The notes: generated from the letters alone by a model not told the origin. A DNA stretch of 64,000 bases from Massilia sp. (GCA_045810465.1 JBJMVW010000221.1:23197-87196); one strand, 5' to 3'. Shown: positions 28,307 to 45,289, counted from the first letter of the stretch. Program-made: numbers and translations.

Positions 28307-28864
28307 ATGACGATGACTGGACTGGACCGCAAACTGCAGGAAAGGCTGCTGCTGGCACGCCGCAGCGAAGGTGATCGCCTGGTGCTGGCCGACGAGGTGC
28401 TGGGCGCGGCGCTCGACGGCAGCCGCCCGCTGACCGTCAACGAGCGCGCCGCGCTCGAAGCCTCGCCGCTGACCGTGCGCCGCCTGCGCCAGCTTTCCAT
28501 CGAGCGCCGCAGCGCCGCGAACGATTGCGCCTGGAACGGCAGCGCCGGCATGCTGCGCGCCGCCGACAACGGCGCCGCGCTGGCCGAACTGGCGACCGAC
28601 GACGGCTGCTGGACCCTGCATTTTGTCGGCCGCGACGGCGACTCGCGCGTGATCCTGCAGCTGGCCGCCGGCGCGCCTTTCGCCGCGCGCCTGCTGCGCG
28701 AACAGGCGATGCTGCGGGTAGTCGATGGCGGCGGCGCAGTGGTGCTGCAGGGCCGGCTGGATGCCGACGGCGAGTGCGAGGCCGCGTGGCCGTTCGCCAG
28801 CGCGCCTGCCGCCCACTTCCAGCGCGCCGGCGCCGCGTTCGCGGTCGAACCGCTGCGGCCCTGA
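28307..28864 (+). CDS. Hypothetical protein (185 aa)
   Basis: RBS GAAGGAG 7 nt upstream. Starts 12 nt after the previous stop. Confidence 0.5.
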   Translation: MTMTGLDRKLQERLLLARRSEGDRLVLADEVLGAALDGSRPLTVNERAALEASPLTVRRLRQLSIERRSAANDCAWNGSAGMLRAADNGAALAELATDDGCWTLHFVGRDGDSRVILQLAAGAPFAARLLREQAMLRVVDGGGAVVLQGRLDADGECEAAWPFASAPAAHFQRAGAAFAVEPLRP

Positions 28865-28867
28865 CGC

Positions 28868-29917
28868 ATGCTCGGCCTGTTCAAACGCTTGGGGCCGCAG
28901 GCCGGGGTCGACACCTCGGCCCTGGGCGCAAGCGCGCTGGCGCTGCCGATGCCGTCCGCTCGCGTGGTGCCGGCCGCTTGCACTGGTGTGGTGGTCGCGA
29001 GTAGCGGCAGCACGCGCCGAGTGGCCGAGGGCGCCAGGCTGGTGCTGGCCGAGGGCGAGCGCGCGTTCTGCTTCCACCCAGGCCCCTACAGCGCGGAGCT
29101 GGCGCCGTTCGCGGCGGCGCCCGAGATCGGGCTGCGGGTCGCGTTCGCGGTCGATCGCCCCGACCCGCGCGCGATCCAACAGCGCTTTGACCTGTACCTT
29201 GCGAGCGAAGGCGGCGACGGGGTCGGGCTGGCCGCCTTCGTGGCCGCTGTCGAGGCGGCGCTGCAGCGTGAACTGGCCCAGGGCAACCTCGAACTGCCCC
29301 CGTGCACCACGCTGGAGGAATGGAACGCCTTCCGGGCCGGGTTCGACCAGTTGCTGTATTCCCGCTTTGGGGTGACGGTCGACGATTGCGTGCCGGTCGA
29401 CCTGGGCGAGTGCCGCGACTACGCCGCCATGCTGGAGGGACGCGCCGCGGCCGCACCCGTGGCCGCGATGGCCCCGCCCGAGGCACCGCATACGGCGCTG
29501 GCGTTCGATCCGGCGTGCGCCGATGCGGCTGCATTGCGGCGCCTGTTCCTCGAACTGCCATGCGTGATGTGCGCGTTGCGCGTTGCGGTGCTGCCGGCCG
29601 GGCAGGCGCTGTTCCGCCAGCACCAGGCGCTGCTGCAGCGCCTCGATTTGGTGAGCCTGTCCGTCGCGACCATGCCGGCACTCGAACTGGAAGCGCCGGG
29701 CCAGCCGCTTGCGCCCGGCCAGCAGTTGCGCCGCGCCCGCCACAGCAGCCGCGCCGCGGTCGGGCTGGACGAGGCATGGGCGCTGCTTGCGCGCCTCGAG
29801 CATGCCGGCGAGGCGCAACTGGCGGCGCTGTTCGACGAAGCCGACCGCATCGTCGCCAACCTGGAACACGACACGGCCGGCCGCCGCGCCGTGGCCGGCG
29901 AAACGGAGGGAGCATGA
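28868..29917 (+). CDS. Hypothetical protein (349 aa)
   Basis: Starts 3 nt after the previous stop. The next gene overlaps it via ATGA. Confidence 0.5.
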   Translation: MLGLFKRLGPQAGVDTSALGASALALPMPSARVVPAACTGVVVASSGSTRRVAEGARLVLAEGERAFCFHPGPYSAELAPFAAAPEIGLRVAFAVDRPDPRAIQQRFDLYLASEGGDGVGLAAFVAAVEAALQRELAQGNLELPPCTTLEEWNAFRAGFDQLLYSRFGVTVDDCVPVDLGECRDYAAMLEGRAAAAPVAAMAPPEAPHTALAFDPACADAAALRRLFLELPCVMCALRVAVLPAGQALFRQHQALLQRLDLVSLSVATMPALELEAPGQPLAPGQQLRRARHSSRAAVGLDEAWALLARLEHAGEAQLAALFDEADRIVANLEHDTAGRRAVAGETEGA

Positions 29918-30918
29918 TTGCGCTGCCCGTCGGCGCCGAATGCCGCAGCATGCTGGCCGACGGCTCGCTGCTGACGGTGAGCGCGACCCGGCGCGAACGC
30001 GCAGGCCGGGCCGACGTCAAGTGCAGCGCGGGTGGCAACCTGGCGCTGGCCGGACGGATGCAGCAGGTGGTGCGCCTCGCGCGCCTGACCGAAGCGCGCC
30101 TGGACAGCCGCGACCAGGTCGTGATCAGCATGGACCGGCCGCCGCAGGATCATGAACGCGACTGGGAACTGGCCGTGGTGCTGGCCGACCGCATGGTGCG
30201 CGGCCTGTTCCACGGCGCCGGCGCCGTGTGCGCCAACGGCTGGTCCGACGAATGGCACCTGGGCCGCGTCACGGGACACGACCTGCACGAGGCCCCGGCC
30301 CACGTGCTGCTCGGCGGCGAGGGCGGTTTGCCGCACCTGGGCGCGTTGGCCGGGCGGCCCGACCAGTCGGCGGCGGTGTCAAGCGCGCGCGCCTGGTTCC
30401 CGCTGCGCAGTGGTGGCATCAACGATAGCCTGTGCTGGGTCGAGGTGAGCGTATATCCGCTCGCGCACGACGGCGCCGACGAGGAAGCGTCGATCGCCGT
30501 GCCTGGCCTCGACGCTGCGCGCCAGTTGGCGGTGCGCCAGGCGCTGGTCGGCGCGCGCCATTTCGATGGCCGTGCGCTTGGGCGCTGGCGCAGCGTGGTG
30601 CGCTTCGGGCAGGACCGGTTCCAGGGCAATTCGTATGAACTGGCGCTGGTGATGGCCGACCGCCTGGCGCGCGGCCGCGAGTTCCTGCCGCGCGGGCGCA
30701 TTGTCGCCAGCGGCTGTTCGGCCGCCTGGCACGTGGGGCGCGTGGATACGGTGGAGGCGCTGGCGCCGAAATGCGCGCTGATCCTGCACAGCGCGGCGCC
30801 GGGCGACCGCATCCTGCTGCCGAAGGCGTGGAAGCCAGGGCTTCCGCCCGGGTACGCGGACGCGCTGCGGGCGAAGGGCGCGAGCCTGGCCTGCGTGGAG
30901 CGGATCGGGATCATTTGA
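29914..30918 (+). CDS. Protein with tandem Lon-protease C-terminal (S16-like) domains, second copy retaining candidate Ser/Lys dyad
   Basis: RBS GGAGGG; ATGA overlap. Internal duplication: DWELAVVLADRMVRGLF...GWSDEWHLGRVTG and NSYELALVMADRLARGREFLPRGRIVASGCSAAWHVGRVDTVEALAPKCALILHSAAPGDRILLPK. Compare Lon [51 protein letters not shown]. Confidence 0.5.
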   Translation: MIALPVGAECRSMLADGSLLTVSATRRERAGRADVKCSAGGNLALAGRMQQVVRLARLTEARLDSRDQVVISMDRPPQDHERDWELAVVLADRMVRGLFHGAGAVCANGWSDEWHLGRVTGHDLHEAPAHVLLGGEGGLPHLGALAGRPDQSAAVSSARAWFPLRSGGINDSLCWVEVSVYPLAHDGADEEASIAVPGLDAARQLAVRQALVGARHFDGRALGRWRSVVRFGQDRFQGNSYELALVMADRLARGREFLPRGRIVASGCSAAWHVGRVDTVEALAPKCALILHSAAPGDRILLPKAWKPGLPPGYADALRAKGASLACVERIGII

Positions 30919-31031: not shown

Positions 31032-32969
31032 ATGTTCCAGATGTTCGGTTTTGGCGGGGCCGGGTGCCCGCGCTGTGGACACAAGGACGCGGACAAGGCG
31101 GGCTATTGCGCCCGTTGCGGGCTGACGCCCGGCGCGCCGCGCAACGCGCCGGTGCTGCGCGAGAACCGCTGGGTCGCCGGTCCCGACGAACTGGCGGTAT
31201 TCTTTGGCGTGCGCGAGCTGGCGGGCGTGTTCGTCAAGACGCTGCGCGTGCCGGCCACCGCGCGCGCCTACATCCTGCAGGGCGACAAGGCGACCGAAGT
31301 GCCCCAGGGCGAATACGAGATCGAAGGCTTTTTCACGCGCCTGAACCACCTGCTGCGCGACCAGCATGCCGAGATCCTGGTCACCCGCACCGGCGCGCTG
31401 CCGGTCGAATTCGCGTTCGACGGCCTGCCGACCGCCGAACACCTCGAGGTAGCGGCGCGCTTCACGGTCAGCGTCAAGATCGAGAACGTGCCCGCGTTCG
31501 CGCGCCACTTCATGACCATGCCGGGCACCATCGGCAGCGCCCAGCTGCGCGAACTGTTGTCCGCGCCGGTACGCCAGTTTGCAGCCGAATTCATCGCCGC
31601 CCGATCGATCCGCGAGATGGCCGACAACCGTGAGCTGCGCGCGCAGCTCGACGAACGGCTGCAGGGCGCCCTCAAGCTGCTGCTGGCCCAGTACGGGCTG
31701 GCGGTGTCGCAGGTCGACACGCTGGCCCTGTGCCACGACAAGTTCGACGCCAACCGGAAGCGCATCGGCAGCCTGTGGCTGGTGGCGGACGAGCGCCACG
31801 TGCAGCTCGAACATGCGAAGCACCTCGACCAGCTGTACAACGACGAGGAATGGCAGCGCATCCGGCGCGAGGAACAGGAGGCGCGCCTGCGGCACAAGCG
31901 CGCCGAGCTGCGCCAGCTTGAAACCATCGAGCGCGCCGAGTTGTCGCTGGCGGGCGCCGAACGCGCGCACGCGATCCGCTCGCGCGAGATCGACCTGTAC
32001 GGGCGCATCGTCGAATCGAAGTCGCGCCGCCAGGCGATCGAACGCGGCGCCGGTGACCTGCTGGCCGACCTCGAACACGACATCGCCAAAAAAGGCGCGC
32101 AGCGCGCCGGCGAGGCCGCCGGGTGGGAGCACGTGCGCGCGCTGGCCGGGATCAGGATGCGCACCGAGCTCGAGGTCGCGCAGCAGGAGGCGCGCCAGTC
32201 GCGCGTGCTGGCGCAGCAGCGCTTTTCGCACCAGCTGCTGCAGCAGCAGATCAGGAACAAGATCGAGCAGGTGCGCCAGATCGAGGACGCGGCGCACCAG
32301 CGTGCCGAGCTCGCGCGGCTGCGCGACAGCGAGCTGGTGGCGGAGCGCCGCGCGCGCGCGCTCGACGACGAGGAACACGCGGCGCGCTACCAGCTGCTGG
32401 TATTGGCCAATGCGGCGCGGCGGCGCGAGGCCGAGCGCGAGCTGGAATGGGAGGAAGAACTGGCCCTGGGCCGCAAGCGCGAGCTGCTGCGCAGCGAATC
32501 CTTGCAGGCGGAGGAAGCGGCGCAACAGCTCGAGGCAATGCGCCGCAGTGGCGCATCGGCCCACGCGCTTGCCCAGCACGAAAAGCTGCTGCGCACGATC
32601 GAGGCCGATCACCTGCACCAGCGCGGCGCGCACCAGTTGCAGCAGGAGCTTGAAGCGCGCCGCGATGCGCACGAGATCGCCCGCAGCGAGTCGTTCGCGG
32701 CGATGGACGATGCCGCAAAGCTGGCGCTGGCGCCGGCCTCGAACGCCGCGGTGCTGGGCGACTACCTGAAGACGCGGGTGCACGCCGCCATGGACCCCGG
32801 CCAGCTCGCGGCGCTGGCCGGGGTGGTCGCGGCAACCAACAGCGTGGCGCCGCTCGACGCCGCGCGCATGGCGCAGGAACGCGCCGACCAGGAACGCGCG
32901 CAGCGCGACGCCGAGGTGGAAAACGAACGCCGCCACCAGCTTGACCTGCTCGCGCTCCGGAAGCCCTGA
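31032..32969 (+). CDS. Zinc-ribbon + SPFH (band-7) + long coiled-coil protein (flotillin/YqiK-like)
   Basis: RBS AGGAG. CPRCGH...CARCG zinc ribbon; SPFH-like core (...SAQLRELLSAPVRQFAAEFIAARSIREMADNRELRAQLDERLQGALKLLLAQYGLAVSQVDTLAL); about 350 aa of E/R/A/Q-rich coiled coil. Confidence 0.65.
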   Translation: MFQMFGFGGAGCPRCGHKDADKAGYCARCGLTPGAPRNAPVLRENRWVAGPDELAVFFGVRELAGVFVKTLRVPATARAYILQGDKATEVPQGEYEIEGFFTRLNHLLRDQHAEILVTRTGALPVEFAFDGLPTAEHLEVAARFTVSVKIENVPAFARHFMTMPGTIGSAQLRELLSAPVRQFAAEFIAARSIREMADNRELRAQLDERLQGALKLLLAQYGLAVSQVDTLALCHDKFDANRKRIGSLWLVADERHVQLEHAKHLDQLYNDEEWQRIRREEQEARLRHKRAELRQLETIERAELSLAGAERAHAIRSREIDLYGRIVESKSRRQAIERGAGDLLADLEHDIAKKGAQRAGEAAGWEHVRALAGIRMRTELEVAQQEARQSRVLAQQRFSHQLLQQQIRNKIEQVRQIEDAAHQRAELARLRDSELVAERRARALDDEEHAARYQLLVLANAARRREAERELEWEEELALGRKRELLRSESLQAEEAAQQLEAMRRSGASAHALAQHEKLLRTIEADHLHQRGAHQLQQELEARRDAHEIARSESFAAMDDAAKLALAPASNAAVLGDYLKTRVHAAMDPGQLAALAGVVAATNSVAPLDAARMAQERADQERAQRDAEVENERRHQLDLLALRKP

Positions 32970-32976
32970 TCCGGTC

Positions 32977-35121
32977 ATGCAAACGGCCATCGACAAGATC
33001 CGCGAATTGCGCGCGCTGCACGAGGACGGCCTGTTGAGCCGCCACGAGTTCGACCTGCGCAAGGACGCGATCCTCGATGCCGCCTGCGCCACGCCGGTGG
33101 AGCTGCCGCCGGCGCATGAAGCGGCCGCCGGGCGCCCCGGCACCGAGATCGGCCTGATGGCTGGCCAGGAGCTTGGGCCGCCCGCGCGCCGCTATCGCCT
33201 CGAGCGCCTGATTGCGTGCGGCAGCGTGGCCCAGGTGTGGCAGGCCACCGACCTCGCGACCCAGGCCGAGCTGGGCCACAGCGCGCAGGTGGCGCTGAAG
33301 ATCCTGGCCCCGCAACTGACCCGGAACGCGAACTACGCGCGCCTGCTGGTCGAGGAAGCGGCTCGCGCGCGGCGGCTCGCGCACGAACACATCGTGCGGG
33401 TGTACGACTGGGCGCGGGACCCTGCCACCGCGAGCTACTTCATCATCATGGAATGGCTGGAGGGCGCCGACCTCGACACCCTGCTGGCGCGCGATGGCCC
33501 GCCCGGCGTGGCGCGCGCGCTGGAACTGCTCGCGCCGGTCGCCGCGGCGCTCGACTATGCGTGGGACAAGCACCGGCTGGTCCACCGCGACATCAAACCG
33601 GCCAATGTGTTCGTGACCAAAAAGGGCGAAGTCAAGCTGCTCGATTTCGGCATCGCGGCGCGTGCACGCGCGACGGCCGGCGGGTCGGTGCTGGAAGCGC
33701 CGGCCAGCTCGGGGACCGCGGGCTACCGCGCGCCGGAGGCCGGTGTGCCGGGGCGGCGCCCGGAGCCAACGCTCGATGTCTACGCGGTCGCGGTGATGTT
33801 TTACCAGATGGTGAGCACAGGCCTGCCGTTCGGGCCTGCGCGCCAGGCTGGGGATACCCCGGCCAGGCCCGACTGCCTTGGCGAGCATCAGTGGCGCACG
33901 CTGCAGGCCGGTTTTGCGCCGGATCCCGCGGCGCGCCCGGCAACCGTGGGCGAACTGCTGGCGCGCCTGCGCGACAGCGCCAGCAAAGTAGTGGCGCAGC
34001 CAGCAATCGAAGCACCGAAGGCCGCGCCCGCCAAGGCTGAACCCCAGGGGACGCAGGTGCTATTGGCGCGCCAGCGACGCGAGCGCGAGAAGCAGGAGCG
34101 CGCAGCCGCCGAATCGGCTCGCCTCAAACGCAAGGAAGCGCTGCGCCAGCAGCTGCTCGCGCGGCGCGCCGAGGACGCCGAAAAAGCGAGGCTGTCCAAA
34201 GAGGAGGCGCGGCGCAAGGCACTGCAGGCGCGTGCGGCCGGCGCGTACCTGGTGCAGCAACAGCGCGAGCGCATGCTACCCGCTGGCCGCGACGAAGCCG
34301 GTTCGCAACCCGTCCTGCGCGATCGCTTCATCGACGGTGGCGGCGCGGGTCCTGCACTGGTGCCGCTCCCCGCCGGACGATTTCAAATGGGCTCACCCGA
34401 GCATGAGCACGACATCGCGCTGCAGGCCGGCGCGCGCAAGCACTGGCTGGCGCGCGAGCTGCCGCGGCATTGGGTCGACATCGGGCGCGCTTTTGCGCTG
34501 GGCCGCTATCCGGTCACCGTCGGGGAGTGGCGCGAGTTCGCGGCCGCCACCGGTTGGCATGGGAAGGGCGCGGTTGACTGGCAGTGCCCCGGCTTTGCGC
34601 AGGCCGACGCGCACCCGGTGGTCGGCATCACATGGCACGACGCGCAGCAGTACCTGCGCTGGCTGTCGGCGCACACCGGCCAGGCCTACCGCCTGCCGAG
34701 CGAAGCGGAGTGGGAATACGCCTGCCGCGCCGGCACCAAAACCGCCTTCAGCTGCGGCGACACCATCAGCACCGAGCTCGCCAATTACGACGGCACCTTT
34801 AGCTACAACGCCGGGCCGCGCGGCGTGTTCCGCCAAGGGACGACAGCGGTGGGCAGTTTTGCGCCCAATCCGTGGGGCCTGTTCGACATGCACGGCAACG
34901 TGTGGGAATGGGTGCAGGACACGGTCCATGACAACTACGACGGCGCCCCGCTCGACGGCAGCGCGTGGGAGGAGGGCGGCGACCAGGCCCGCCGCATCCT
35001 GCGCGGCGGCTCCTGGCTGTACCACCCGCGCTACCTGCGCTCGGCGCTGCGCAACGGGTTCTCGGCCGCCCTGTGCAATGACATCGTCGGCTTCCGGGTG
35101 GCGAGGGACCTGCCGCGATAG
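32977..35121 (+). CDS. SHOCT domain / Ser-Thr protein kinase / FGE-sulfatase (SUMF1-like) domain fusion
   Basis: N-terminal IDKIRELRALHEDGLLSRHEFDLRKDAIL (SHOCT). Kinase motifs HRDIKPANVFV, DFGIA, GTAGYRAPE. C-terminal RLPSEAEWEYACRAGTKT...GNVWEWVQD...RGGSW (FGE-sulfatase). Confidence 0.8.
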   Translation: MQTAIDKIRELRALHEDGLLSRHEFDLRKDAILDAACATPVELPPAHEAAAGRPGTEIGLMAGQELGPPARRYRLERLIACGSVAQVWQATDLATQAELGHSAQVALKILAPQLTRNANYARLLVEEAARARRLAHEHIVRVYDWARDPATASYFIIMEWLEGADLDTLLARDGPPGVARALELLAPVAAALDYAWDKHRLVHRDIKPANVFVTKKGEVKLLDFGIAARARATAGGSVLEAPASSGTAGYRAPEAGVPGRRPEPTLDVYAVAVMFYQMVSTGLPFGPARQAGDTPARPDCLGEHQWRTLQAGFAPDPAARPATVGELLARLRDSASKVVAQPAIEAPKAAPAKAEPQGTQVLLARQRREREKQERAAAESARLKRKEALRQQLLARRAEDAEKARLSKEEARRKALQARAAGAYLVQQQRERMLPAGRDEAGSQPVLRDRFIDGGGAGPALVPLPAGRFQMGSPEHEHDIALQAGARKHWLARELPRHWVDIGRAFALGRYPVTVGEWREFAAATGWHGKGAVDWQCPGFAQADAHPVVGITWHDAQQYLRWLSAHTGQAYRLPSEAEWEYACRAGTKTAFSCGDTISTELANYDGTFSYNAGPRGVFRQGTTAVGSFAPNPWGLFDMHGNVWEWVQDTVHDNYDGAPLDGSAWEEGGDQARRILRGGSWLYHPRYLRSALRNGFSAALCNDIVGFRVARDLPR

Positions 35122-35944: not shown

Positions 35945-36019
35945 GGCGGGCGCAGCCCGGTAGGGCGCGATAGTTTGGTGTACATTGTGGACTCCGATCC
36001 CCGATCACAGGAGCCTCGC

Positions 36020-36418
36020 ATGAGCATCACCGTCCGCCGCGATACTTCGCGCCCCATGCGCCACACCGTCCATGTGCGCAACCACGAGTTCGTCGTTGAC
36101 GGCACCATCGCCGAAGGCGGTGACGATGCCGGGCCCAGCGCGCACGACCTGTACGACGCCGCGCTCGGCACCTGCAAGGCGCTGACCGTGGCCTGGTACG
36201 CGCACCGCAAGGGCATGCCGTTGGGGGACGTCGAGGTCACGGTCGAGCGCGACGACAGCGCCGAGCGCCAGGGCGTGTACAAGCTGGGGACCACGCTGCG
36301 CCTGGGCGGCGACCTGTCCGACGCGCAGCGCCAGGAACTGCTGGCGGTCGCCGCCAAGTGCCCCGTGCACAAGCTGATGACCGCGGTAACCACCGAAATC
36401 ACCACCACATTGGGCTGA
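36020..36418 (+). CDS. OsmC/Ohr family peroxiredoxin
   Basis: MSITVRRD...AALGTCKALTVAWYA...AAKCPVHKL (two conserved Cys). Confidence 0.75.
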   Translation: MSITVRRDTSRPMRHTVHVRNHEFVVDGTIAEGGDDAGPSAHDLYDAALGTCKALTVAWYAHRKGMPLGDVEVTVERDDSAERQGVYKLGTTLRLGGDLSDAQRQELLAVAAKCPVHKLMTAVTTEITTTLG

Positions 36419-37520: not shown

Positions 37521-38984
37521 TCAGCCGGCCGCCCGGCGTTCGACCGGGCCTGCGCGCCGGCGGTCGCCATCGCCTGCGCGCTCGGCAAACGCTTCCGGAT
37601 ACGGTCCGCCGGCAAAGCTTAGCGGGCCCGGCAGGCCGCACAGCCGGTCGAGCGGCAAGCCCGGCGCCAGCGCGGTTTCGTGGCCGGTGGCAGGGTCGAG
37701 GTGCCAGAAGCCGCCGTCGCGGTGGAACAGGAACGGCAGCAGCCGCGCCTGCGGCATTGCCTCGAGCCCGGCTTCGCCCGGATGCCGCTCCGGATCCAGC
37801 AGGCAATAGCATTCGGCGCCGGCCCCGCCGTCGGCGCGATGCAGGATCACGCCGTTGGGCAGCAGCGCCGTGACCGTCAGCACCACCACGCCCCGGATAC
37901 TGGCTGTCAGCTCGATGCGCATGCCGAGCCGGAGCGGCACCGGCACATGCTTGCCGGGCCAGGCTCCGTCGACCAGCAAGCCGTAGCGCGACACATCCTC
38001 GACCTGGTAGCCGTCGCGGCCGCGCCGGATGACCGCGTGGCGTCCCGACAGCCTGCGCGTCAGGCCAGACCGGTCCGCGCGCTCGTCGCTGAAGTGGCAC
38101 AGCAACAGGTCGGCCTCAGGCTCCTCCTGGTAACGGCCCAGCACCACCTCGTCCATTGCAAACAGGCGCACGTGGCCGGGCATTCCCGGCGCCGCATTGA
38201 CCAGGCAGGCCGCGCGGGCCGGGCAGGGATGCGGGCCGGCGTGGGCTGGCGTGTCGATTTCGATCAGGTCCTCGTCCCACGCGATCGTCGCGAGGCCGAC
38301 GTCGACCTTGCCCGGCTCCGCATCGAGATTGAGCTGCGCGATCGAGGCGTCGCGCGCGCTGACTTCGATGTCGAGCCGGCCGCTGGCCTGCGCGTTCACG
38401 CGCGCGATCGAGGCGTCGTCCGCGATGACGCGCACGTTCTTGTGGGTCGCGAGGAAGGCCTGGTGGATGTCGGCCAGCGTCGCGTCGGGGCGCGGCACAT
38501 TGACCACCAGCGTGCAGACCCAGCTGCGGGCCGAGCCAGGGATATGCTCGTGCCGGCTGTGCAGTTCGAGTTCGATGCGGTGCTGGCCGTGCTCGACCCC
38601 CCGCGAGGAAAACTCGATGAACACGGGGCGCCAATCGCCGCGCAGGGTGCGCGTGAACGTGTGGCGCTCGCCACCGTGCAGCACCAGTGCCGACTGCGCC
38701 AGCATCGCCAGCTGCGGCGCGGCGTCCATCGGCATGCCGCGCAGTTCGAGCTTGAGGGCCTGCCGGCCGCCGGCGGCGCGCGGGTCGAAACCGCTCACGT
38801 GCAGGTGCGGGCGCGGCAGCGGCGGCCGCGGCAGGATCGGATCAGGAGCAGCAGGGGCGTTGGGGCTGGCGGCAGGTGCAGGCTGCGGCGCTTGCCGATG
38901 GCCGTGCTGGCACGCCGCCTCGCCTGGCATCACCCAGACGGTGCAATGCGGATGCTCGGGATTGCGGCACTTGTTCATCGGCAA
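37521..38984 (-). CDS. FHA-domain protein with N-terminal Cys/His-rich (zinc-ribbon-like) segment
   Basis: FHA signature ...RRLSGRHAVIRRGRDGYQVEDVSRYGLLVDGA... N-terminus CRNPEHPHCTVWVMPGEAACQHGH. Confidence 0.65.
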   Translation of the reverse strand: MPMNKCRNPEHPHCTVWVMPGEAACQHGHRQAPQPAPAASPNAPAAPDPILPRPPLPRPHLHVSGFDPRAAGGRQALKLELRGMPMDAAPQLAMLAQSALVLHGGERHTFTRTLRGDWRPVFIEFSSRGVEHGQHRIELELHSRHEHIPGSARSWVCTLVVNVPRPDATLADIHQAFLATHKNVRVIADDASIARVNAQASGRLDIEVSARDASIAQLNLDAEPGKVDVGLATIAWDEDLIEIDTPAHAGPHPCPARAACLVNAAPGMPGHVRLFAMDEVVLGRYQEEPEADLLLCHFSDERADRSGLTRRLSGRHAVIRRGRDGYQVEDVSRYGLLVDGAWPGKHVPVPLRLGMRIELTASIRGVVVLTVTALLPNGVILHRADGGAGAECYCLLDPERHPGEAGLEAMPQARLLPFLFHRDGGFWHLDPATGHETALAPGLPLDRLCGLPGPLSFAGGPYPEAFAERAGDGDRRRAGPVERRAAG

Positions 38985-40477: not shown

Positions 40478-41053
40478 ATGCTGATCCGTCCAATCGAGCA
40501 AACCGACATCGCGGCGGTGGCGCGCCTGCTGCACGCCCTCGCGCGCGAGTTCATCGTCCACGAAGCGAGCGTGGAGGAGGCGTGCACCTTCCTGCGTGAA
40601 AACGACGAGGACAGCCTGCGCGGTTTCATCGAGCGCGGCTACGCCTACCACGTGGCGCTGGCCGGCGGCGAGATCGCCGGCTTCGTCGCGGTGCGCGAGC
40701 GCAGCCACCTGTACCACCTGTTCGTCGACAAACGCTGGCAGCGCCAGGGCCTGGCGCGGCGCCTGTGGGACGTGGCGCGCAGCGCGGCGCTCGCCGCCGG
40801 CAACGGCGGCACATTCACGGTCAACTCATCGAACCTCGCGGTGCCGGTGTACGAGTCGTTCGGATTCGTGCGCACCGCGCCCATGCAGTGCGTGCGCGGT
40901 GTGCGTTTCAACCCGATGCTGCTGACGCTACCCGTGTCGCGTGCGCTCGGGAGCGCACACTACGGCATCGTCAGCGCCGCGCCTCATTTTGCTTTCGCAG
41001 CCACAGGCTGCTTACCCAGCCGCGCTGTGCGCGCCCGTCTACCCGCACGCTGA
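40478..41053 (+). CDS. GNAT-family N-acetyltransferase
   Basis: MLIRPIEQTDIAAV...VDKRWQRQGLARRLW (Q/RxxGxG/A acetyl-CoA motif). Confidence 0.6.
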   Translation: MLIRPIEQTDIAAVARLLHALAREFIVHEASVEEACTFLRENDEDSLRGFIERGYAYHVALAGGEIAGFVAVRERSHLYHLFVDKRWQRQGLARRLWDVARSAALAAGNGGTFTVNSSNLAVPVYESFGFVRTAPMQCVRGVRFNPMLLTLPVSRALGSAHYGIVSAAPHFAFAATGCLPSRAVRARLPAR

Positions 41054-41411
41054 CCTCCCACCAGTCGCCGCTGCGCACACCGGTTGGCGTGACGGCGGCG
41101 CCTGCCGGGACCACGGCGACGCGGCGCGCCGATACGCCGGTGCCGGTGCGCAGGTTCAGGTCGTCGTAGGCGCGGTAGCTGGAACCCAACGCGCCCGCCG
41201 CGTTCGCCAATTGCGCGGCGTGCGCGGGCGGCGCGTCGAACAACCGAAGCAGCCCGCTCCCGATCCCGACGGTGCCCACCACCAGCACCGCGAGCGCGCG
41301 CGCGTTCGGCCGGCGCCACCAGCCGTGCGGCGTCAGCCAGGCGGCCAGGATCAGGGTCGCCACCAGCGCCGCGCAAAACACGGCCACGGTTAATACGGTC
41401 GCGGCGCCCAT
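40971..41411 (-). CDS. Membrane-anchored SH3b-domain protein (146 aa)
   Basis: Only the C-terminal part of long ORF 40971..41903(-) is credible. ATG at 41409-41411 is 7 nt downstream of the FHA gene stop. TM helix plus YDDLNLRTGTGVSARRVAVVPAGAAVTPTGVRSGDWWEVSVRVDGRAQRGWVSSLWL (SH3_3-like). Confidence 0.55.
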   Translation of the reverse strand: MGAATVLTVAVFCAALVATLILAAWLTPHGWWRRPNARALAVLVVGTVGIGSGLLRLFDAPPAHAAQLANAAGALGSSYRAYDDLNLRTGTGVSARRVAVVPAGAAVTPTGVRSGDWWEVSVRVDGRAQRGWVSSLWLRKQNEARR

Positions 41412-41418: not shown

Positions 41419-42969
41419 CTACGCGTCGAAGCGCAGCACGTAATGGCCCGCCACCAGGTGGTGCCCCGGCGGCAGCAGGTATGGGCGCTCGGCCGATGCG
41501 TCCTCGATCGCCGCCACGTAGCGCAACTCGTCGTCGAGGTGGTACAGCGCCTGGGTCGGCGACAGGCGCGCGATCCGGTAGCCATCCGGCGCGGCTTCGA
41601 AGCTGAAGGCGTTGCGCGACAGGCCAAGCCGGTCCGCGCTGGCGGTATCGACGCCATCGGCACGGCGCAGGAAGCGCGGCGAATCGAGCACCCGCAGCGC
41701 GGCCAGCATCGGCGCGCTGCGCCCGAACACGAACGGCATGCCGGTGGCGACCGGCAGGCCGGGCGCCTGCGGCAGGCACAGGATCGCGCGGTAGCGCTCG
41801 GCCATCGCGGGAGCGACCGCCAGCAGGCGCACCGCGGTCGCGTCGAGCGGCGTGAAACTGGACGGCACGTCGATCCGCTGGCGTCCGGCGGCTGTGATCG
41901 CATGCACGTCGTCCGCGTCGTCGACCGCGAAGCTGATCACCGCATCCTTTCCATGCGGCGTAGGCGCCAGCGCGCGATTGAGGCCGATTTCGAGGGCCAG
42001 CGCGCCGGTCTCGCGGTAGCGCGACAGGCGCGGCAACGCGAGCGCGGCCAGGCTCACGCGCTGGCGCGCGACCGGCGCATAGGTGGCGTCGCTTTCCGGC
42101 GCCGGCGCCGCCTGGGGCGGCCGCTGGGCGACGGGGACGGCGGTCAGCTCGGGGTCGGCATCGAGCTGGCCGCGCGCCTTCCACACGGCCGGCGCCGCAA
42201 TCGGCCGCGCCGTCGGCATCGGCGCGGCCGGGACGCCGGTCCGCGTCACTTTCATGAACAGGCGCGGCGCACCGCCCGCAGCGTCGGCGCCCGCGCGCCT
42301 GGCGCGGATCGTGTAGTAGCCGCTGGCGGCGTCGAAGCTGCAATCGAAAGCGTCCTTCGGGCGCACCTGGACTTCGATCGGCGCGTCCGGCCCATCGTTC
42401 ACCAGCAGCACTGCGCCCTGGTCGCCGAACGGCCAGCCCGGCACCGCGTGGGTGGCGCTGGCTTCGTCCTGCCCGACCAGGGTCAGGCGCTGGTTCGGGT
42501 AGATCGGGCACACCGGGTGCCAGATCGCGCTGTCGCGCGAGACGCTCACCGTGTACAGTATTTTCTCGCCCGGGGCCGGCAGGTACACCGCGTGGCCGAA
42601 CTTGACTTCGACCTGGCCCGGTTCGAGCGTCCCGGCGCCGACCACGTCGTAGCGCACTTCGTCGCTGCCGAGCAGGTCGCCGAAGTCTTTCTGGTGCAGT
42701 GCGGCCAGCGTTTGCGCGAGGTCGCGCACGCGGGCGCCGCGCGTGAGGTGGCGGTCGTCGTCGACGTCGTCCTGCGGCAGCACCAGTGTCACGTGCGAGA
42801 AGCAGCGCGTGGCCATCCGTCCGCGCTGCTCGCGCGGCGAGCGCTCGAGCAGGTCGCGCAGCAGGGGGCGGCGCGCGAACAGCGCCAGCCCCGGCGCCTG
42901 CCAGAGCGCTTCGGCATTGAACACATCGTGAACCTTGCCAAGCACTTCATGTTGGACATAGACCGGCAT
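41419..42969 (-). CDS. FhaA-like protein: N-terminal uncharacterised domain + C-terminal FHA domain
   Basis: C-terminal ...GLSRNAFSFEAAPDGYRIARLSPTQALYHLDDELRYVAAIE...GHHLVAGHYVLRF (FHA-like). 23-nt overlap with the upstream FHA-SEDS gene. Confidence 0.6.
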   Translation of the reverse strand: MPVYVQHEVLGKVHDVFNAEALWQAPGLALFARRPLLRDLLERSPREQRGRMATRCFSHVTLVLPQDDVDDDRHLTRGARVRDLAQTLAALHQKDFGDLLGSDEVRYDVVGAGTLEPGQVEVKFGHAVYLPAPGEKILYTVSVSRDSAIWHPVCPIYPNQRLTLVGQDEASATHAVPGWPFGDQGAVLLVNDGPDAPIEVQVRPKDAFDCSFDAASGYYTIRARRAGADAAGGAPRLFMKVTRTGVPAAPMPTARPIAAPAVWKARGQLDADPELTAVPVAQRPPQAAPAPESDATYAPVARQRVSLAALALPRLSRYRETGALALEIGLNRALAPTPHGKDAVISFAVDDADDVHAITAAGRQRIDVPSSFTPLDATAVRLLAVAPAMAERYRAILCLPQAPGLPVATGMPFVFGRSAPMLAALRVLDSPRFLRRADGVDTASADRLGLSRNAFSFEAAPDGYRIARLSPTQALYHLDDELRYVAAIEDASAERPYLLPPGHHLVAGHYVLRFDA

Positions 42970-45289
42970 GATGACTCTCCTCTAAAGATTGGGCGCTCGC
43001 CGCATCGAACGCTAGCAGGGGGCAGATGAAAAACAGCAGGTGCGAGCCGCCGGCCGACAAAAAGCTCATCGGCTGGCCCATGATCGGGAAGATGGCGAGG
43101 TTGGTCCCCCACGACAGCAGGAAGTGGCCGAGCACGAAGCCGGCCCCGCCGCACAGCGCAAAGCAGCGAAAGCGCGCCAGCCACGCGTGGCGGAAGTCGC
43201 GCGCCTGCACGCTCGCGGCCCAAGCGCGGGCGGCGGTCTGCAGCAGGCCGACCAGGAACAGCGCCTGCAGCGCCCACAGTGCCAGTGCGGCGGCCAGGCC
43301 GTGCCGGTTCACGAAGAACGAGGGCGCGAAGTCGTCCTGCACCGCCGGGATGCGGGTGGCGGGGCCGGCCGGCTGTCCGAGTGTGCTCACGCCGAGCAGG
43401 CTGTCGGTCCCGAGCCAGCCGCCCTCGGCGACCGCACTGGCGCCCAGCAGCAGCTGCTGGCCGGTGTGCGGGTGCGTGGCCGGATCGAGCCAGACCAGGA
43501 AACGGTCGGCGTAAAAATCAAACTGCGCGAGCTGCGCCGGGCCGGCGCTGCGCAGGGCGCCGATGCCGAGCACCGTGGCGCAGGCCAGCGCCGCCAGCGC
43601 CAGCACCGCCGACGGCCTGCGCGCGGCCAGCGCCCAGGCCAGCGCCATCGTGCCGCCCCATACCAGCAGCAGGATCAGCGGCGAATAATCGTCCACCTGG
43701 ACCAGCGCCACGCCGAGCAGGGTCACGAACAGCAGCGCGGGCGCGAATAGCCGCAGCCAGCGCAGCGCGGTCGCGCCGGTGTGGGCGCCAAGGCCGATCG
43801 CCATGCAGTGCGCGGTAAGGGCGGCCAGCGCGAGCTTGGCGAATTCGACCGGCTGCAGGTCGAACACGCCGGTTTCGTCACCGTGGATCACCTGCAGCGC
43901 CAGCGCTGCAAGGGCGCCGGCGGCGAGCAGCAGCAACCAGCGTTCGGCCCGGGCTTGCGGCATCGGGATGCGCGGCAGCGCTGTGCAAAGCCAGGTGCCC
44001 GCCCCAAGGCCGAGCGCCAGCAGTGCCGCGCTCTTGTGGAAGTGGCGCGGCCACGACGAGTCCATCACGCCCAGCCCCAGTTCGAGCTGGGCCAGCAGGC
44101 CGGCCGCGAGCAGCAGCACGCCAGCCATGAAGGCCAGGTCGAGGCGCCTCGGCGCCAGCGTCGCGTACCACAGGGCCGCCCACGCCAGCATCAGCGACAG
44201 CCCGATGGCGGGCGGCGTTCCGCCACGCTGGAGCACGAGCGAGCCGAGGCCGGCCACGACCAGCAGGGCGCCGGCGGCCGACCGGATTGCCGCGCCGGTG
44301 CGCTGGGTGCGCGTGCTCCGGCGCCAGGCGGCACAGGCGCCAGCCAGCACGGCGCAGCCGAGCGCCAGCGCGCACAGCCACCCAACTGGCAGCGGCGCCG
44401 CCCACAGGCTGCGCCGCTGCCATTGCCACGTTACCTGCGGTGGCAACTGGACCTGGCGCTCGGCATACAGCCCCACATGGCTGACGGGCCGCAGGCGCAG
44501 CGTGGCCCCATCGGCCGCTGCCAGCAGCCTGGTGTGGCCAGCCACGATCGCGCCGGCGCCGCCGAGGGCTTCCTCCAGGCGCGCCAGCTCGGTCGCGCTG
44601 TCGCCGTCGATGATGACCAGCGGCGTACGGCCCGCGCCCGCCGGTGCGTTCAGCAGCAGCGTCGGGCCGACGCTTGCGATGGACGCACTGCCAGGCGCCA
44701 CGCCCGCGATGCCGATCCGGTTGCCGCAGTGGAGATTGCCGCCGAAGGTGATCGGCCCGGCCAGCGAGAGCGCATGCGGCATGCAGCGGTTCCAGGCCGC
44801 GGTGGCGCGCGCGCCGATGCCGGCGCCGGGGCAGGGCGGTTGGGCAGCGCCGTCGCGCTCGAGGGTCGCGCCGTCGTAGTGCCAGCGGTGGGAGGCGCCG
44901 GTGAAGCGGGCGTCGCGTGCGCTGGCCGCGGCGACATCGAACGCTGCGACGCCAAGCTGGAAGCGCTGTCCCGCGTGCAGCGGCGTGCTGCCGGTCGCGC
45001 GGTCCTTGCCGTCGCGCTGGACCAGCAATTGGCGGCCGCCGGCGTTGTGCAGCCACCAGGCGCCCGCGCCATCGCGCCGCAGCGCCAGGTGGGACTGGTC
45101 GGCCTGCGGCGCCGCCAGCTCGTGGCGGCCAAGCGTGAGCGACTCCCCCGGCAGCAGCGTGACCTCGATGGATTCGGGCGCCCAGGCGGCCGGTGCGCGC
45201 AGCAGGCATAGCAACTGCAGCGCGCACAGGAGGGCGAGCGCGCAAGCGGCCGGCGACAGCTCCGCGGCGGACCTGGCGTACCTGTTCAT
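42947..45289 (-). CDS. FHA-domain / SEDS-family (RodA/FtsW-like) peptidoglycan glycosyltransferase fusion
   Basis: N-terminal LTLGRHELAAP...SHLALRRDG...GQRFQLG (FHA-like). About 10 TM helices. C-terminal SEDS signature ...NLAIFPIMGQPMSFLSAGGSHLLFF. 4-nt overlap with the kinase gene. Confidence 0.75.
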   Translation of the reverse strand: MNRYARSAAELSPAACALALLCALQLLCLLRAPAAWAPESIEVTLLPGESLTLGRHELAAPQADQSHLALRRDGAGAWWLHNAGGRQLLVQRDGKDRATGSTPLHAGQRFQLGVAAFDVAAASARDARFTGASHRWHYDGATLERDGAAQPPCPGAGIGARATAAWNRCMPHALSLAGPITFGGNLHCGNRIGIAGVAPGSASIASVGPTLLLNAPAGAGRTPLVIIDGDSATELARLEEALGGAGAIVAGHTRLLAAADGATLRLRPVSHVGLYAERQVQLPPQVTWQWQRRSLWAAPLPVGWLCALALGCAVLAGACAAWRRSTRTQRTGAAIRSAAGALLVVAGLGSLVLQRGGTPPAIGLSLMLAWAALWYATLAPRRLDLAFMAGVLLLAAGLLAQLELGLGVMDSSWPRHFHKSAALLALGLGAGTWLCTALPRIPMPQARAERWLLLLAAGALAALALQVIHGDETGVFDLQPVEFAKLALAALTAHCMAIGLGAHTGATALRWLRLFAPALLFVTLLGVALVQVDDYSPLILLLVWGGTMALAWALAARRPSAVLALAALACATVLGIGALRSAGPAQLAQFDFYADRFLVWLDPATHPHTGQQLLLGASAVAEGGWLGTDSLLGVSTLGQPAGPATRIPAVQDDFAPSFFVNRHGLAAALALWALQALFLVGLLQTAARAWAASVQARDFRHAWLARFRCFALCGGAGFVLGHFLLSWGTNLAIFPIMGQPMSFLSAGGSHLLFFICPLLAFDAASAQSLEESHHAGLCPT

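Follow-up and report, generated by a model that had tools for sequence, protein, structure and literature searches.

Gene G, at the centre of this analysis, encodes an ordinary member of an annotated protein family, and its three-domain architecture is already on record; the new part is the conserved and previously undescribed gene set that surrounds it, comprising a SEDS/PBP-like pair, an SPFH protein and a Lon-like protein. The value of the finding lies in this gene context and not in the G protein itself. From the association of the genes, we read G as an SPFH-docked cytoplasmic sensor kinase that would signal, through phosphothreonine and an FHA protein, to an accessory SEDS-bPBP machine, a reading that we hold with about as much confidence as doubt. 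Coordinates are counted from the first letter of the window, that is, the whole 64,000-nt stretch of DNA from a Massilia MAG that was analysed.

Domain architecture of G

32977..35121, + strand: G, SHOCT-like / Ser-Thr kinase / long helix / FGE(PvdO)-like protein, 714 aa (ORF, Pfam)
32986..33087, + strand: SHOCT-like bi-helical hairpin, G residues 4-37 (sub-cut-off Pfam SHOCT match, AlphaFold, orthologs)
33187..33996, + strand: Hanks-type kinase domain, G residues 71-340 (Pkinase, PDB relatives, ortholog invariance)
34054..34275, + strand: Lys/Arg/Glu-rich 74-residue helix, a stalk or coiled-coil candidate, G residues 360-433 (AlphaFold)
34339..35118, + strand: FGE-sulfatase-fold (C-type-lectin-like) domain, closest to PvdO, G residues 455-714 (PF03781, PvdO)

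G is encoded by a single ORF without interruption. A mechanical call places it at 32941-35121 with a TTG start; judged by ortholog alignment, the ATG at 32977 is the true start, since 40 orthologs show little or no variation at Met1 and the MQTAIDKIRELRAL after it. The GC3 of 0.86 is what coding sequence in this genome usually shows, and a Massilia sp. MAG protein matches G at 100% identity. No transmembrane or other hydrophobic segment was found by hydropathy, nor any signal peptide, and G is therefore predicted to be cytoplasmic. The protein carries a standing NCBI name, 'bifunctional serine/threonine-protein kinase/formylglycine-generating enzyme family protein', and its architecture is spread throughout Massilia, Telluria, Duganella, Rugamonas and Pseudoduganella.

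The N-terminal hairpin is SHOCT-like. Pfam SHOCT (PF09851) aligns with residues 6-33 over 28/28 profile positions, scoring 17.6 bits (E 0.0033) against a gathering cut-off of 27. Relatives score 24.8, 26.6 and 28.7 bits, the last (a 54%-identical relative) exceeding the cut-off, and a precomputed PF09851 match is present in about half of the 120 orthologs listed. AlphaFold (AF2) predicts a helix-turn-helix at residues 4-37, with block pLDDT values of 85-93 for residues 1-30 and about 75 for residues 31-40. The hairpin is nearly invariant across 40 orthologs, and its pattern is retained in distant paralogs of 25-28% identity. According to the SHOCT founding paper (PMC3581485), SHOCT is mostly C-terminal in proteins, with N-terminal examples documented, and Band 7 is its most frequent fusion partner. 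For SHOCT-like hairpins a role in placing domains at the inner membrane leaflet has been predicted, and Band-7/2TM/SHOCT fusions exist (PMC11237479).

The kinase domain follows. Pfam Pkinase matches residues 75-286 (E 1.3e-31) and, among solved structures, PknB and PknA come nearest to it (E about 5e-30). In 40/40 orthologs there is no change at K108, E127, HRD203-205, K207, N210, DFG223-225, T247 or E254. In this MAG the glycine-rich loop departs slightly from the consensus (CGSVAQV versus HGGMGQV), with G82 invariant. Judged by these residues, which are those of a Hanks-type Ser/Thr kinase, the kinase looks active. Beyond it, AF2 models residues 360-433 as a single helix (pLDDT 72-89).

The C-terminal domain shares a fold and clear sequence homology with FGE and PvdO. 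Pfam FGE-sulfatase (PF03781) matches residues 459-710 over 253/255 profile positions (E 4.1e-57); the PvdO entry 5hha matches G at E 7.5e-42 and human FGE at E 2.4e-19. The domain is among the best-conserved regions of G, its C-terminal 40 residues being almost invariant among orthologs. True FGE requires the catalytic, copper-binding pair Cys336/Cys341. When the human FGE segment ...GGSYMCHRSYC... is aligned with G ...GGSWLYHPRYL..., the positions of this pair are taken by Tyr682 and Leu687, both invariant in 40 orthologs. Because both cysteines are absent, the domain cannot be a true formylglycine-generating enzyme.

Other identities for this domain were rejected. PvdO is a periplasmic, pyoverdine-specific maturation protein, unlike G, which has neither signal peptide nor transmembrane segment for export; the NCBIfam PvdO profile (NF051459, dihydropyoverdine dehydrogenase) matches G over its full length at 189.5 bits, against a cut-off of 500. 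An EgtB/OvoA-type sulfoxide synthase is likewise rejected, as EgtB TIGR03440 reaches 71.4 bits where 360 are required, through the C-terminal half of the profile only, and the Pfam scan of G found no DinB-like iron-binding domain. Nor is G a DGR-diversified FGS variable protein: a template search with the last 820 nt of G found no copy longer than 40 nt within the window, Pfam found no DGR-type RT adjoining G, and the C-terminus is almost invariant.

The initial annotation had described G as one cytoplasmic protein with three domains. The single ORF, the Pfam FGE-sulfatase and Pkinase domains and the SHOCT-like hairpin bear this out, and every motif it quoted was found. Its Hanks kinase has an invariant catalytic core, its Lys/Arg/Glu-rich linker is present and is the predicted 74-residue helix, the lack of a hydrophobic segment agrees with the location proposed, and its suggestion that the domain does not make formylglycine, with the cysteine check it called for, is upheld in 40/40 orthologs. 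Its 'SHOCT oligomerisation motif' stands as a SHOCT-like hairpin; the oligomerisation is unsupported by the only experiment in the founding paper (PMC3581485). The SHOCT addition is also not unusual, as it was thought to be, given the distribution of the architecture among Massilia relatives and an N-SHOCT/Pkinase/PG_binding/FGE-sulfatase protein listed in that same 2013 paper (PMC3581485), which has SHOCT, kinase and FGE-sulfatase in the order of G and differs in having PG_binding (PF01471) where G has the long charged helix. Finally, kinase-FGE fusions were held to be known mainly from Actinobacteria, Planctomycetes and myxobacteria, which is contradicted by the NCBI name, by Chlamydia Pkn1 (below) and by the catalogued 'Proteo1' STK family with a C-terminal FGE-sulfatase domain, for which DUF4384 is an alternative C-terminal domain (10.1101/2025.01.12.632604). 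Proteo1 and the NCBI name resemble G by architecture, as proteobacterial Hanks kinases with C-terminal FGE-sulfatase; neither description mentions SHOCT or the operon.

The operon upstream of G

G is the last gene of an operon with the order A, B, C, D, E, F, G.

23539..26754, + strand: A, single-pass membrane protein with a class-B-PBP-like transpeptidase domain, 1071 aa (Transpeptidase, TM)
27018..28295, + strand: B, orphan, 425 aa (start at Met37 of the mechanical ORF, from ortholog alignment)
28307..28864, + strand: C, orphan, 185 aa (syntenic in 78 loci)
28868..29917, + strand: D, orphan, 349 aa (syntenic in 76 loci; stop overlaps the E start, ATGA)
29914..30918, + strand: E, tandem Lon-protease-fold protein, 334 aa (second domain with invariant Ser240, Lys286)
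31032..32969, + strand: F, Zn-ribbon / SPFH (Band 7) / long Glu-Arg-Ala-rich, probably helical, protein, 645 aa (Band_7)

A has one transmembrane segment (residues 49-83) and a match to Transpeptidase PF00905 (E 1.8e-18), in which the motifs STFK741-744 (SxxK), SLN826-828 (SxN) and KTG1004-1006 are invariant in 45/45 orthologs; it is syntenic in 73 loci. B and C returned no family match in Pfam and other profile searches, and D nothing in Pfam, NCBIfam, PADLOC, PHROG or PDB sequences. E is assigned to the Lon proteolytic fold at the level of fold only. Its Ser240 and Lys286 are invariant and 46 residues apart, and by eye the pattern GNS...ASG...PK resembles GPS...MTG...KEK of Lon; the first repeat has Trp-Glu where the Ser would stand. 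An hhalign comparison of E with the E. coli Lon protease domain gave a probability of 0.2%, and a PDB profile search with E found no Lon. RadA and ComM have the Lon fold yet are non-proteases, and BrxL and CalpL, both defence proteins, are among the neighbours of E by fold.

F matches Band_7 (PF01145) at 28.9 bits, over the cut-off of 23.6 (E 1.4e-6), and its orthologs match Zn_Ribbon and Band_7; a search of the PDB found no sequence relative. Flotillins and stomatins are usually membrane-anchored. No hydrophobic or transmembrane segment was found in F, so membrane association of the F scaffold is assumed. The gap between the F stop (32969) and the G start is 7 nt. The initial annotation had put the coupling to a flotillin-like gene at 8 nt; the Band 7 assignment and the adjoining of the genes stand, with the gap one of 7 nt. 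An automatic count over 118 loci, including 80 metagenomic loci of the same locus type recovered with E, has G beginning -4 to +38 nt past the F stop in 104, and in 13 further loci the C-terminal half of G lies at the expected distance (one of these, on inspection, has an intact G and a 7-nt gap). Far from being unusual, as had been proposed, the coupling is strictly conserved and lies within a far larger gene system.

The convergent FHA gene and minus-strand operon

37521..38984, - strand: FHA protein with an N-terminal Cys/His-rich segment (zinc-ribbon-like by eye), 487 aa (FHA)
40971..41411, - strand: SH3b (SH3_3) protein, 146 aa, last of the minus-strand operon (SH3_3)
41419..42969, - strand: U516, orphan, 516 aa (beside the SEDS-like gene in L001 and L164)
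42947..45289, - strand: SEDS (FtsW/RodA)-like polytopic membrane protein, 780 aa (FTSW_RODA_SPOVE)
45286..46275, - strand: STK2, stand-alone Hanks kinase, 329 aa, first of the minus-strand operon (Pkinase, E 4.6e-25)

The FHA gene is convergent and downstream of G in at least 54 loci, directly adjacent to it in M. litorea, and its FHA domain scores 24.0 bits, over the cut-off of 20.7. The SH3_3 match is also above its cut-off (31.6 bits versus 27), and the position of this gene is kept in locus L001 and in the distant contig L164. U516 returned no family match in profile searches and is 69% identical in L001. The SEDS-like protein matches FTSW_RODA_SPOVE (PF01098) at E 1.2e-16. Since both it and A score far under the FtsW, RodA and PBP2 equivalog cut-offs, we take them to be divergent paralogs rather than the housekeeping pair. 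The position of STK2 is kept in M. litorea; a Metallophos gene adjoins it.

Conservation of the locus

The order A-B-C-D-E-F-G is found in all 80 GTDB loci wherever the contig extends far enough. The total sample is about 160 loci, mostly from one family-level clade (Oxalobacteraceae), and each related locus examined, in Massilia, Telluria, Duganella, Rugamonas and Pseudoduganella, is single-copy and keeps this order. The region downstream of G is variable, while the F-G spacing of a few nucleotides persists across genera. Synteny within Oxalobacteraceae could, taken alone, reflect common descent, and the argument for a functional module therefore rests mainly on one distant metagenomic contig, L164. 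This contig keeps eleven families at 30-45% protein identity in a rearranged order: B (37% identical), C (44%), D, E, G, FHA (32%, beside the G-like gene), F, SH3b, U516 (40.5%, full-length), the SEDS-like protein (40.5%) and the PBP-like protein A (36%). In the part of it examined, no stand-alone STK2 counterpart was seen. Ahead of the module stand a caspase, two caspase-FGE and three kinase-FGE genes in a row. A DUF4384 gene is present in this contig's version of the module. A 54%-identical relative in Massilia sp. W12 has an unrelated gene context.

This larger conserved system, with its PBP-like, Lon-like, FHA and SEDS proteins, had not been spotted in the initial annotation.

A proposed function in wall synthesis

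If G is the sensor kinase that we propose, its SHOCT-like hairpin would dock it on the F scaffold, or on the inner membrane leaflet beside F, with G probably translationally coupled to F and the 74-residue helix serving as a stalk or dimerisation element. The FGE/PvdO-like domain would be a lectin-fold module binding a cytoplasmic ligand or partner, candidates being a wall precursor or a protein of the module, and ligand binding may govern the activity of the kinase. The FHA protein of the convergent gene could then read phosphothreonine on module proteins or on G itself, at the invariant activation-loop residue Thr247. The output might be control of the SEDS/PBP-like machine, perhaps via E, in analogy to other SPFH proteins, which are repeatedly paired with proteases. 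The transpeptidase motifs of A, the SEDS-like match and the precedent of Pkn1 all favour a wall function. Extra SEDS/transpeptidase pairs with flanking Ser/Thr kinases recur across phyla (PMC12516126). Against it stand the lack of a recognisable fold or family for B, C, D and U516, the absence of a predicted membrane segment from F, the sub-cut-off SHOCT score of G, the fold-level assignment of E, the unrelated context of the W12 relative, and the run of caspase-FGE and kinase-FGE genes in the distant contig, which is more typical of conflict systems.

A bolder version, which we offer only tentatively, is that about twelve co-conserved genes (A, B, C, D, E, F, G, FHA, STK2, SEDS-like, U516 and SH3b) form a machine for morphogenesis or envelope repair, so far undescribed, in Gram-negative soil bacteria, with a dedicated third SEDS-bPBP synthase that is activated or placed by a wholly cytoplasmic sensor kinase of lectin fold. 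A flotillin-like, membrane-free cage would in this case be the site where the kinase is assembled, with a coupling to regulated proteolysis.

Alternative explanations

The main rival, which we regard as unlikely, is an anti-invader (phage or plasmid) system in which the FGE or 'FGS' domain senses a foreign molecule within the cell, the kinase, FHA and Lon-like proteins execute a response that is defensive or abortive, and the SPFH protein is a platform for assembly. FGS domains have been described as sensors of invaders inside the cell, in fusion with kinases, caspases, TIR and STAND NTPases (PMC7159879, PMC8195603, PMC12803255), and in the FGS conflict systems (Kaur et al. 2020, 2021), as in G, an FGE-fold intracellular binding module lies C-terminal to an effector or signalling domain. 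The caspase and FGE-fusion genes beside the module in the distant contig point the same way, as do BrxL and CalpL among the fold neighbours of E and the matches of the G kinase domain to the PD-T4-6 and MADS6 defence-kinase profiles of PADLOC. However, those PADLOC matches are confined to the generic kinase domain (residues about 70-290, up to 420), NCBIfam MAD6 scores 109.8 on G against a cut-off of 460, and B, C, D, E, F, the FHA protein and U516 have no PADLOC or PHROGs match; G is thus rejected as one of the known defence kinases PD-T4-6 or MADS MAD6. The locus is also single-copy and constant in gene order across Oxalobacteraceae genera, without the patchiness of a defence island, its FGE domain is highly conserved rather than diversifying, with no DGR-like template of the 3' end in the window, and the conserved SEDS-like/PBP-like partnership is no defence signature. 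Unlike the FGS conflict systems, the G locus has no STAND or vWA-MoxR NTPase and no DGR. If the anti-invader explanation were true, the locus would be a new multi-gene immune system with a lectin-fold sensor.

It is improbable that G is, in keeping with its NCBI name, a bifunctional enzyme, with a PvdO- or EgtB-type oxidative C-terminal domain working on a small molecule or a peptide and a kinase that regulates it or is regulated by it. The domain is much nearer PvdO than FGE, matching the whole PvdO profile, and holds many invariant residues, but it falls far under the PvdO cut-off, has no export signal such as periplasmic PvdO needs, lacks both FGE cysteines and a DinB-like partner domain, and sits in an operon in which Pfam finds no biosynthetic genes. 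Least probable of all is that G is an independent housekeeping kinase whose neighbours reflect inherited gene order without functional meaning: most of the loci come from one clade, where synteny by descent is possible, and the W12 relative lies in another context, but the same families recur in another order in a lineage with just 30-45% identity, the few-nucleotide F-G spacing holds from genus to genus while the sequence beyond G varies, and SHOCT-Band 7 fusions elsewhere (PMC3581485) tie both proteins together.

Comparison with known systems

The closest studied protein by architecture is Pkn1 of Chlamydia trachomatis, which is reported to be septal, to be needed for division, to affect peptidoglycan levels and to bind MreB, and whose C-terminal domain InterPro predicts to be sulfatase-modifying-factor-1-related (10.64898/2026.09.24.754023). 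Like G it has an N-terminal-side kinase and a C-terminal SUMF1/FGE-like domain, and its link to the wall fits the context of G. Unlike G, it has no SHOCT mentioned and no SPFH, Lon-like or FHA operon partners reported, and Chlamydiae are very far from Oxalobacteraceae.

The module also resembles the actinobacterial cluster fhaA-fhaB-pstP-rodA-pbpA-pknA-pknB, and G may be set beside the PASTA kinases PknB and StkP. Cluster and module each bring together genes for Hanks kinase(s), FHA protein(s), a SEDS protein and a class-B PBP. PknB, however, is a membrane-spanning receptor whose PASTA sensors lie outside the cell; G is cytoplasmic throughout and its sensor is FGE-like. The G module has no PP2C phosphatase, the Metallophos gene beside STK2 standing instead, and its SEDS-like and PBP-like proteins are unusually long; nothing in the actinobacterial cluster corresponds to the SPFH protein, the tandem Lon-like protein, B, C, D or U516. 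As in the SPFH-protease pairs HflKC-FtsH and stomatin-STOPP/NfeD, an SPFH scaffold (F) is encoded beside a candidate Ser-Lys-type protease (E), which has the fold of Lon and in this differs from those partners, with their ClpP/NfeD or FtsH folds.

Biological significance

Kinase-FGE fusions are common in bacteria, and Pkn1, the only studied example, has just recently been tied to division. The G locus provides a second setting, one that is genetically tractable and found in free-living Massilia, Duganella and Rugamonas, with testable links from SHOCT to Band 7, from the FGE domain to a wall ligand, from phosphothreonine to FHA and from SPFH to a protease; a fold has also been assigned to one of five orphan families. 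If the larger morphogenetic machine is real, Gram-negative bacteria would have in it an equivalent of the PASTA-kinase/FHA/RodA/PbpA circuit that senses from inside, and the widespread 'dead' FGE domain of bacterial kinases, including Pkn1, would gain a defined ligand from cell-wall metabolism.

A conserved gene array ends in G

G encodes a 714-aa protein with a SHOCT-like segment, a Ser/Thr kinase domain, a long helix and an FGE(PvdO)-like domain, and closes a gene array, A to G, that lies on one strand.

Genes of the A to G array (window coordinates, strand, product)
A: 23539-26754, +, membrane protein of 1071 aa, single-pass, transpeptidase domain
B: 27018-28295, +, orphan
C: 28307-28864, +, orphan
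D: 28868-29917, +, orphan
E: 29914-30918, +, tandem Lon-fold protein
F: 31032-32969, +, Zn-ribbon, SPFH/Band 7 and a long Glu-Arg-Ala-rich region (probably helical), no TM segment
G: 32977-35121, +, last gene of the array

We used the E protein to search one genome per GTDB species, which gave 127 loci, and checked gene order in the best 80 of these. The best 80 all belong to the Oxalobacteraceae (Massilia, Telluria, Duganella, Rugamonas and Pseudoduganella), and the order A-B-C-D-E-F-G is kept in every one of them where the contig is long enough, so that the coupling of G to the flotillin-like gene F is no oddity, contrary to the initial annotation. Its observation of tight spacing between the two genes stands, but the gap, put at 8 nt, is 7 nt, since F stops at 32969. 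An automatic count, which took in 80 further metagenomic loci found with E (close relatives of the same locus), placed the G start between -4 and +38 nt past the F stop in 104 of 118 loci; the 13 other loci are reporting gaps, and the one inspected has an intact 794-aa G lying 7 nt after F. As the best 80 of the GTDB and metagenome scans are all Oxalobacteraceae, the wider phyletic spread of the array rests on one contig, described below. In Massilia brevitalea, G (794 aa) has a far longer Pro/Ala-rich insert ahead of the long helix, and F (L021 11033-13276) has a further zinc-ribbon-like motif at its C-terminus, CANGHPACGSDRFCASCG, which window F lacks.

Across 45 orthologs of A, the SxxK, SxN and KTG motifs do not vary. 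G+C content peaks at 0.76 in window 24001-26000, within the Ala/Gly/Pro-rich region of A between its TM segment and transpeptidase domain, for which no family match was found. A promoter and terminator scan gave nothing better than shuffles. The 263-nt A-B intergenic region holds four copies of a REP-like element built on GGGTCAGAGTCRAATT, in alternating orientation (window 26754-26908), which build long AT-rich palindromes and occupy the place where a promoter for B to G would be expected; two more copies lie about 1.1 kb upstream of A (22343-22401). Six copies were seen against zero expected, none occurs in 163 related loci, and the element appears to be specific to this genome.

Orphan families and the Lon-fold protein E

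Searches of Pfam, NCBIfam, PADLOC, PHROGs and PDB sequences, including searches with family profiles, gave no match for B, C, D, E or U516 (a 516-aa orphan encoded on the minus strand). E contains two Lon-fold domains in tandem, the second with an invariant Ser240 and Lys286 spaced as in the Lon-like motif and the first with Trp-Glu where the serine would stand. Homology to Lon at the level of sequence is not supported (hhalign against E. coli Lon, 0.2% probability, not significant; no PDB profile match), which leaves the match in fold. We take the Lon fold to be firm, whereas E may be a protease.

By eye, the C-terminus of B (LPTMQQLAALDxVSLPTLRKRRDAAIxRL, kept down to the distant contig) resembles a sigma region-4-type helix-turn-helix. 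The idea that B is sigma-like and C an anti-sigma factor, acting with E in a circuit of the CalpL/CalpT/CalpS style, found no support; the B family matched E. coli RpoE at 0.7% probability in hhalign (a weak test) and its PDB profile search was empty. The last 100 residues of U516 likewise look FHA-like by eye (FGR...LSRNAF...LVAGHYVLRF), and a divergent FHA domain was not supported there (hhalign against the family of the FHA protein, 0.1% probability).

An FHA gene and a minus-strand operon lie beyond G

Features downstream of G (window coordinates, strand, product)
35267-37315: GNAT acetyltransferase, OsmC-like protein and pirin, between G and the FHA gene
37521-38984, -: FHA-domain gene, convergent on G
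40971-41411, -: SH3b protein, minus-strand operon
41419-42969, -: U516 orphan, minus-strand operon
42947-45289, -: SEDS (FtsW/RodA)-like protein, 780 aa, minus-strand operon
45286-46275, -: STK2, a second, stand-alone kinase, minus-strand operon

At least 54 loci have the FHA gene convergent on G, and in Massilia litorea, which lacks the GNAT-OsmC-pirin block, it directly adjoins G; the spacer between the two holds variable cargo from genus to genus. The STK2/SEDS-like/U516/SH3b operon is also present in M. litorea. The scores of both the SEDS-like protein and A fall well short of the equivalog cut-offs for FtsW, RodA and PBP2, and the two are therefore divergent accessory paralogs. A calcineurin-like (Metallophos) phosphoesterase gene (window 47051-48244), about 0.8 kb past the STK2 start codon on the opposite strand, likewise follows STK2 in M. 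litorea, and its product could be the partner Ser/Thr phosphatase, a role usually filled by PP2C. Elsewhere in the window, a second pirin beside a flavodoxin-like FMN reductase (9942-11441) and an RNase H/RVT_3-like protein beside an HD-domain protein (20920-22246) appear to be ordinary genes of the chromosome with no relation to the module.

A distant contig retains the same families

A distant version of the module was found on one 522-kb metagenomic contig of 65% G+C (stretches L002 and L164), with proteins 30-45% identical to those of the window and a different gene order and orientation.

Module proteins on the distant contig (identity to the window protein)
A-like transpeptidase protein: 36%
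B-like: 37%
C-like: 44%
D-like and E-like: 30% and 34%
Zn-ribbon/Band 7 protein, convergent: 44-45%
G-like kinase-FGE, full length: 41%, same N-terminal bi-helical pattern
FHA-like: 32%
SH3b protein: present
U516-like: 40.5% over full length
SEDS-like: 40.5%
DUF4384 protein: L164 18790-19944, between the SEDS-like and PBP-like genes

That eleven families are kept together despite this divergence and rearrangement strongly indicates a single functional system, which is centred on the SEDS plus class-B-PBP-like pair. The DUF4384 gene is of note in that, according to the kinase atlas preprint, Proteo1 kinases carry either DUF4384 or FGE-sulfatase at the C-terminus (10.1101/2025.01.12.632604), a hint that the two domains have related roles. 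An apparent D-E gene fusion on this contig is probably not robust, as the same 90% cluster has separate 364-aa and 390-aa proteins. Upstream of the distant module (L002 1-11803) lie one caspase, two caspase-FGE and two further kinase-FGE genes, giving six FGE-domain or caspase-domain paralogs within 18 kb, a row reminiscent of the way paralogs expand in conflict systems.

G is a single protein with a putative binding domain

G is encoded in one unbroken frame (window 32977-35121, +) with a GC3 of 0.86, in a window of about 70% G+C, and its product is 100% identical to an NCBI record, 'MAG: Massilia sp.'. A mechanically called TTG start at 32941 was discarded, since it overlaps F and orthologs all start at the ATG at 32977; Met1 is invariant among 40 aligned orthologs (67-82% identity to the window protein). 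Two neighbouring genes in place of a fusion are excluded by the lack of an internal stop and by full-length orthologs everywhere. Thus, the single gene with three domains proposed by the initial annotation is upheld by its frame, by its orthologs and by three Pfam domains: FGE-sulfatase (residues 459-710, E 4.1e-57), Pkinase (75-286, E 1.3e-31) and SHOCT (6-33, the whole profile length, at 17.6 bits against a cut-off of 27). We regard the SHOCT call as credible at the family level because PF09851 is precomputed in about half of 120 listed orthologs, a 54%-identical relative scores 28.7 bits, the segment is the best-conserved stretch of the N-terminus among the 40 orthologs, and AlphaFold predicts a helix-turn-helix hairpin at residues 4-37 (block pLDDT 85-93 for residues 1-30 and about 75 for 31-40). 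The AF2 model, made from the 40 close orthologs, is poor as a whole (pLDDT 64, kinase N-lobe wrong) and was relied on for the hairpin and the long helix only, the Lys/Arg/Glu-rich linker being predicted as one 74-residue helix (360-433).

Hydropathy shows no hydrophobic segment across the 714 residues, and the whole protein is therefore predicted to be cytoplasmic. The nearest solved structures to its kinase domain are M. tuberculosis PknB and PknA (E ~5e-30). Lys108, Glu127, His203-Arg204-Asp205, Lys207, Asn210, Asp223-Phe224-Gly225, Thr247 and Glu254 are invariant in the 40 orthologs, the glycine-rich loop is slightly degenerate in the window protein, and to judge from these residues the cytoplasmic kinase is apparently active.

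The C-terminal domain is far closer to PvdO (5hha, E 7.5e-42) than to human FGE (E 2.4e-19). The two catalytic cysteines of human FGE align with Tyr682 and Leu687, which are unchanged in 40 of 40 orthologs; the domain reaches 189.5 bits against the curated PvdO cut-off of 500, and 71 against 360 for EgtB, and a Pfam scan found no DinB-like iron domain in G. For these reasons we conclude that the domain has the FGE fold yet is not an FGE, and the earlier suspicion of a non-catalytic domain is borne out by the replacement of both cysteines. The simplest reading of the domain is as a binding module, which fits the literature on 'FGS' domains of C-type-lectin fold, found fused to kinases, caspases, TIR and STAND NTPases (PMC7159879, PMC8195603; PMC12803255). 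G is not a DGR target: its C-terminus hardly varies among orthologs, and the window contains no template repeat.

The architecture itself is not new, and G is a member of an annotated family, its orthologs bearing the NCBI name 'bifunctional serine/threonine-protein kinase/formylglycine-generating enzyme family protein'. Proteo1, a proteobacterial kinase family, has a C-terminal FGE-sulfatase domain (10.1101/2025.01.12.632604), and the 2013 paper defining SHOCT (PMC3581485) describes a protein with N-terminal SHOCT, kinase, peptidoglycan-binding domain and C-terminal FGE-sulfatase, and cites Chlamydia Pkn1 as an example of a kinase fused to FGE. The initial annotation had placed such kinase fusions mainly in Actinobacteria, Planctomycetes and myxobacteria and considered the SHOCT addition unusual, neither of which agrees with these sources. 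The 2013 paper also names Band 7 as the commonest SHOCT fusion partner, and its own experiment does not support SHOCT oligomerisation. Of the best 150 matches in a search of 1.84 billion cluster representatives, only a handful of 50% clusters have all three parts of the architecture, so that G is a narrow lineage of a broad kind. In Massilia sp. W12 (CP147776, L003 10001-12331) a 48-54% identical relative, its SHOCT above the Pfam cut-off, is preceded by a response regulator, a HEAT-repeat protein and a GT2 glycosyltransferase with no A to F genes nearby, so that the architecture is not confined to the module.

A possible role at an accessory wall-synthesis machine

We give an even chance to G being an SPFH-docked cytoplasmic sensor kinase that signals via FHA to an accessory SEDS/PBP-like machine. 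An actinobacterial precedent is the fhaA-fhaB-pstP-rodA-pbpA-pknA-pknB cluster. A ligand or partner in the cytoplasm would be bound by the FGE-like domain, with binding gating the kinase, and the FHA protein would read the phosphothreonine marks. The output would be a tuning of the SEDS/PBP-like machine, possibly via proteolysis by E, since SPFH proteins are typically paired with proteases (HflKC-FtsH, stomatin-STOPP/NfeD). The SHOCT hairpin might set G on the SPFH scaffold or the neighbouring inner leaflet, given the SHOCT-Band 7 fusions described in PMC3581485 and the predicted anchoring of domains at the membrane by SHOCT-like hairpins (PMC11237479). Extra SEDS/transpeptidase pairs with flanking Ser/Thr kinases occur in several phyla (PMC12516126), and the kinase-SUMF1-like Pkn1 of Chlamydia is reported to be septal, division-essential, MreB-bound and linked to peptidoglycan levels (10.64898/2026.09.24.754023).

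Another way to view the module is as an anti-invader system, to which the FGS literature, the resemblance of E to BrxL and CalpL, and the row of caspase-FGE and kinase-FGE paralogs adjoining the distant module could all point. However, the PADLOC matches of G are to its generic kinase domain only and its neighbours have no PADLOC or PHROGs match, which removes a defence annotation of G; the module is syntenic and single-copy across the clade, its sensor domain is conserved and not diversifying, and its partners are wall-synthase genes, so that we consider a defence role unlikely. A truly bifunctional enzyme, as the closeness of the domain to PvdO could suggest, is very improbable with the cysteines and iron domain missing, scores under the PvdO and EgtB cut-offs and a predicted cytoplasmic location. 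That these genes adjoin without meaning is hardly credible given the distant contig.

The conserved module was not found described as a combination in the literature searched. It joins a SHOCT-kinase-FGE protein, a Zn-ribbon/SPFH protein, a tandem Lon-fold protein, an FHA protein, four orphan families and an accessory SEDS-bPBP pair. It is the conserved gene context, a larger system that the initial annotation had not seen, and not protein G, that is the main result.
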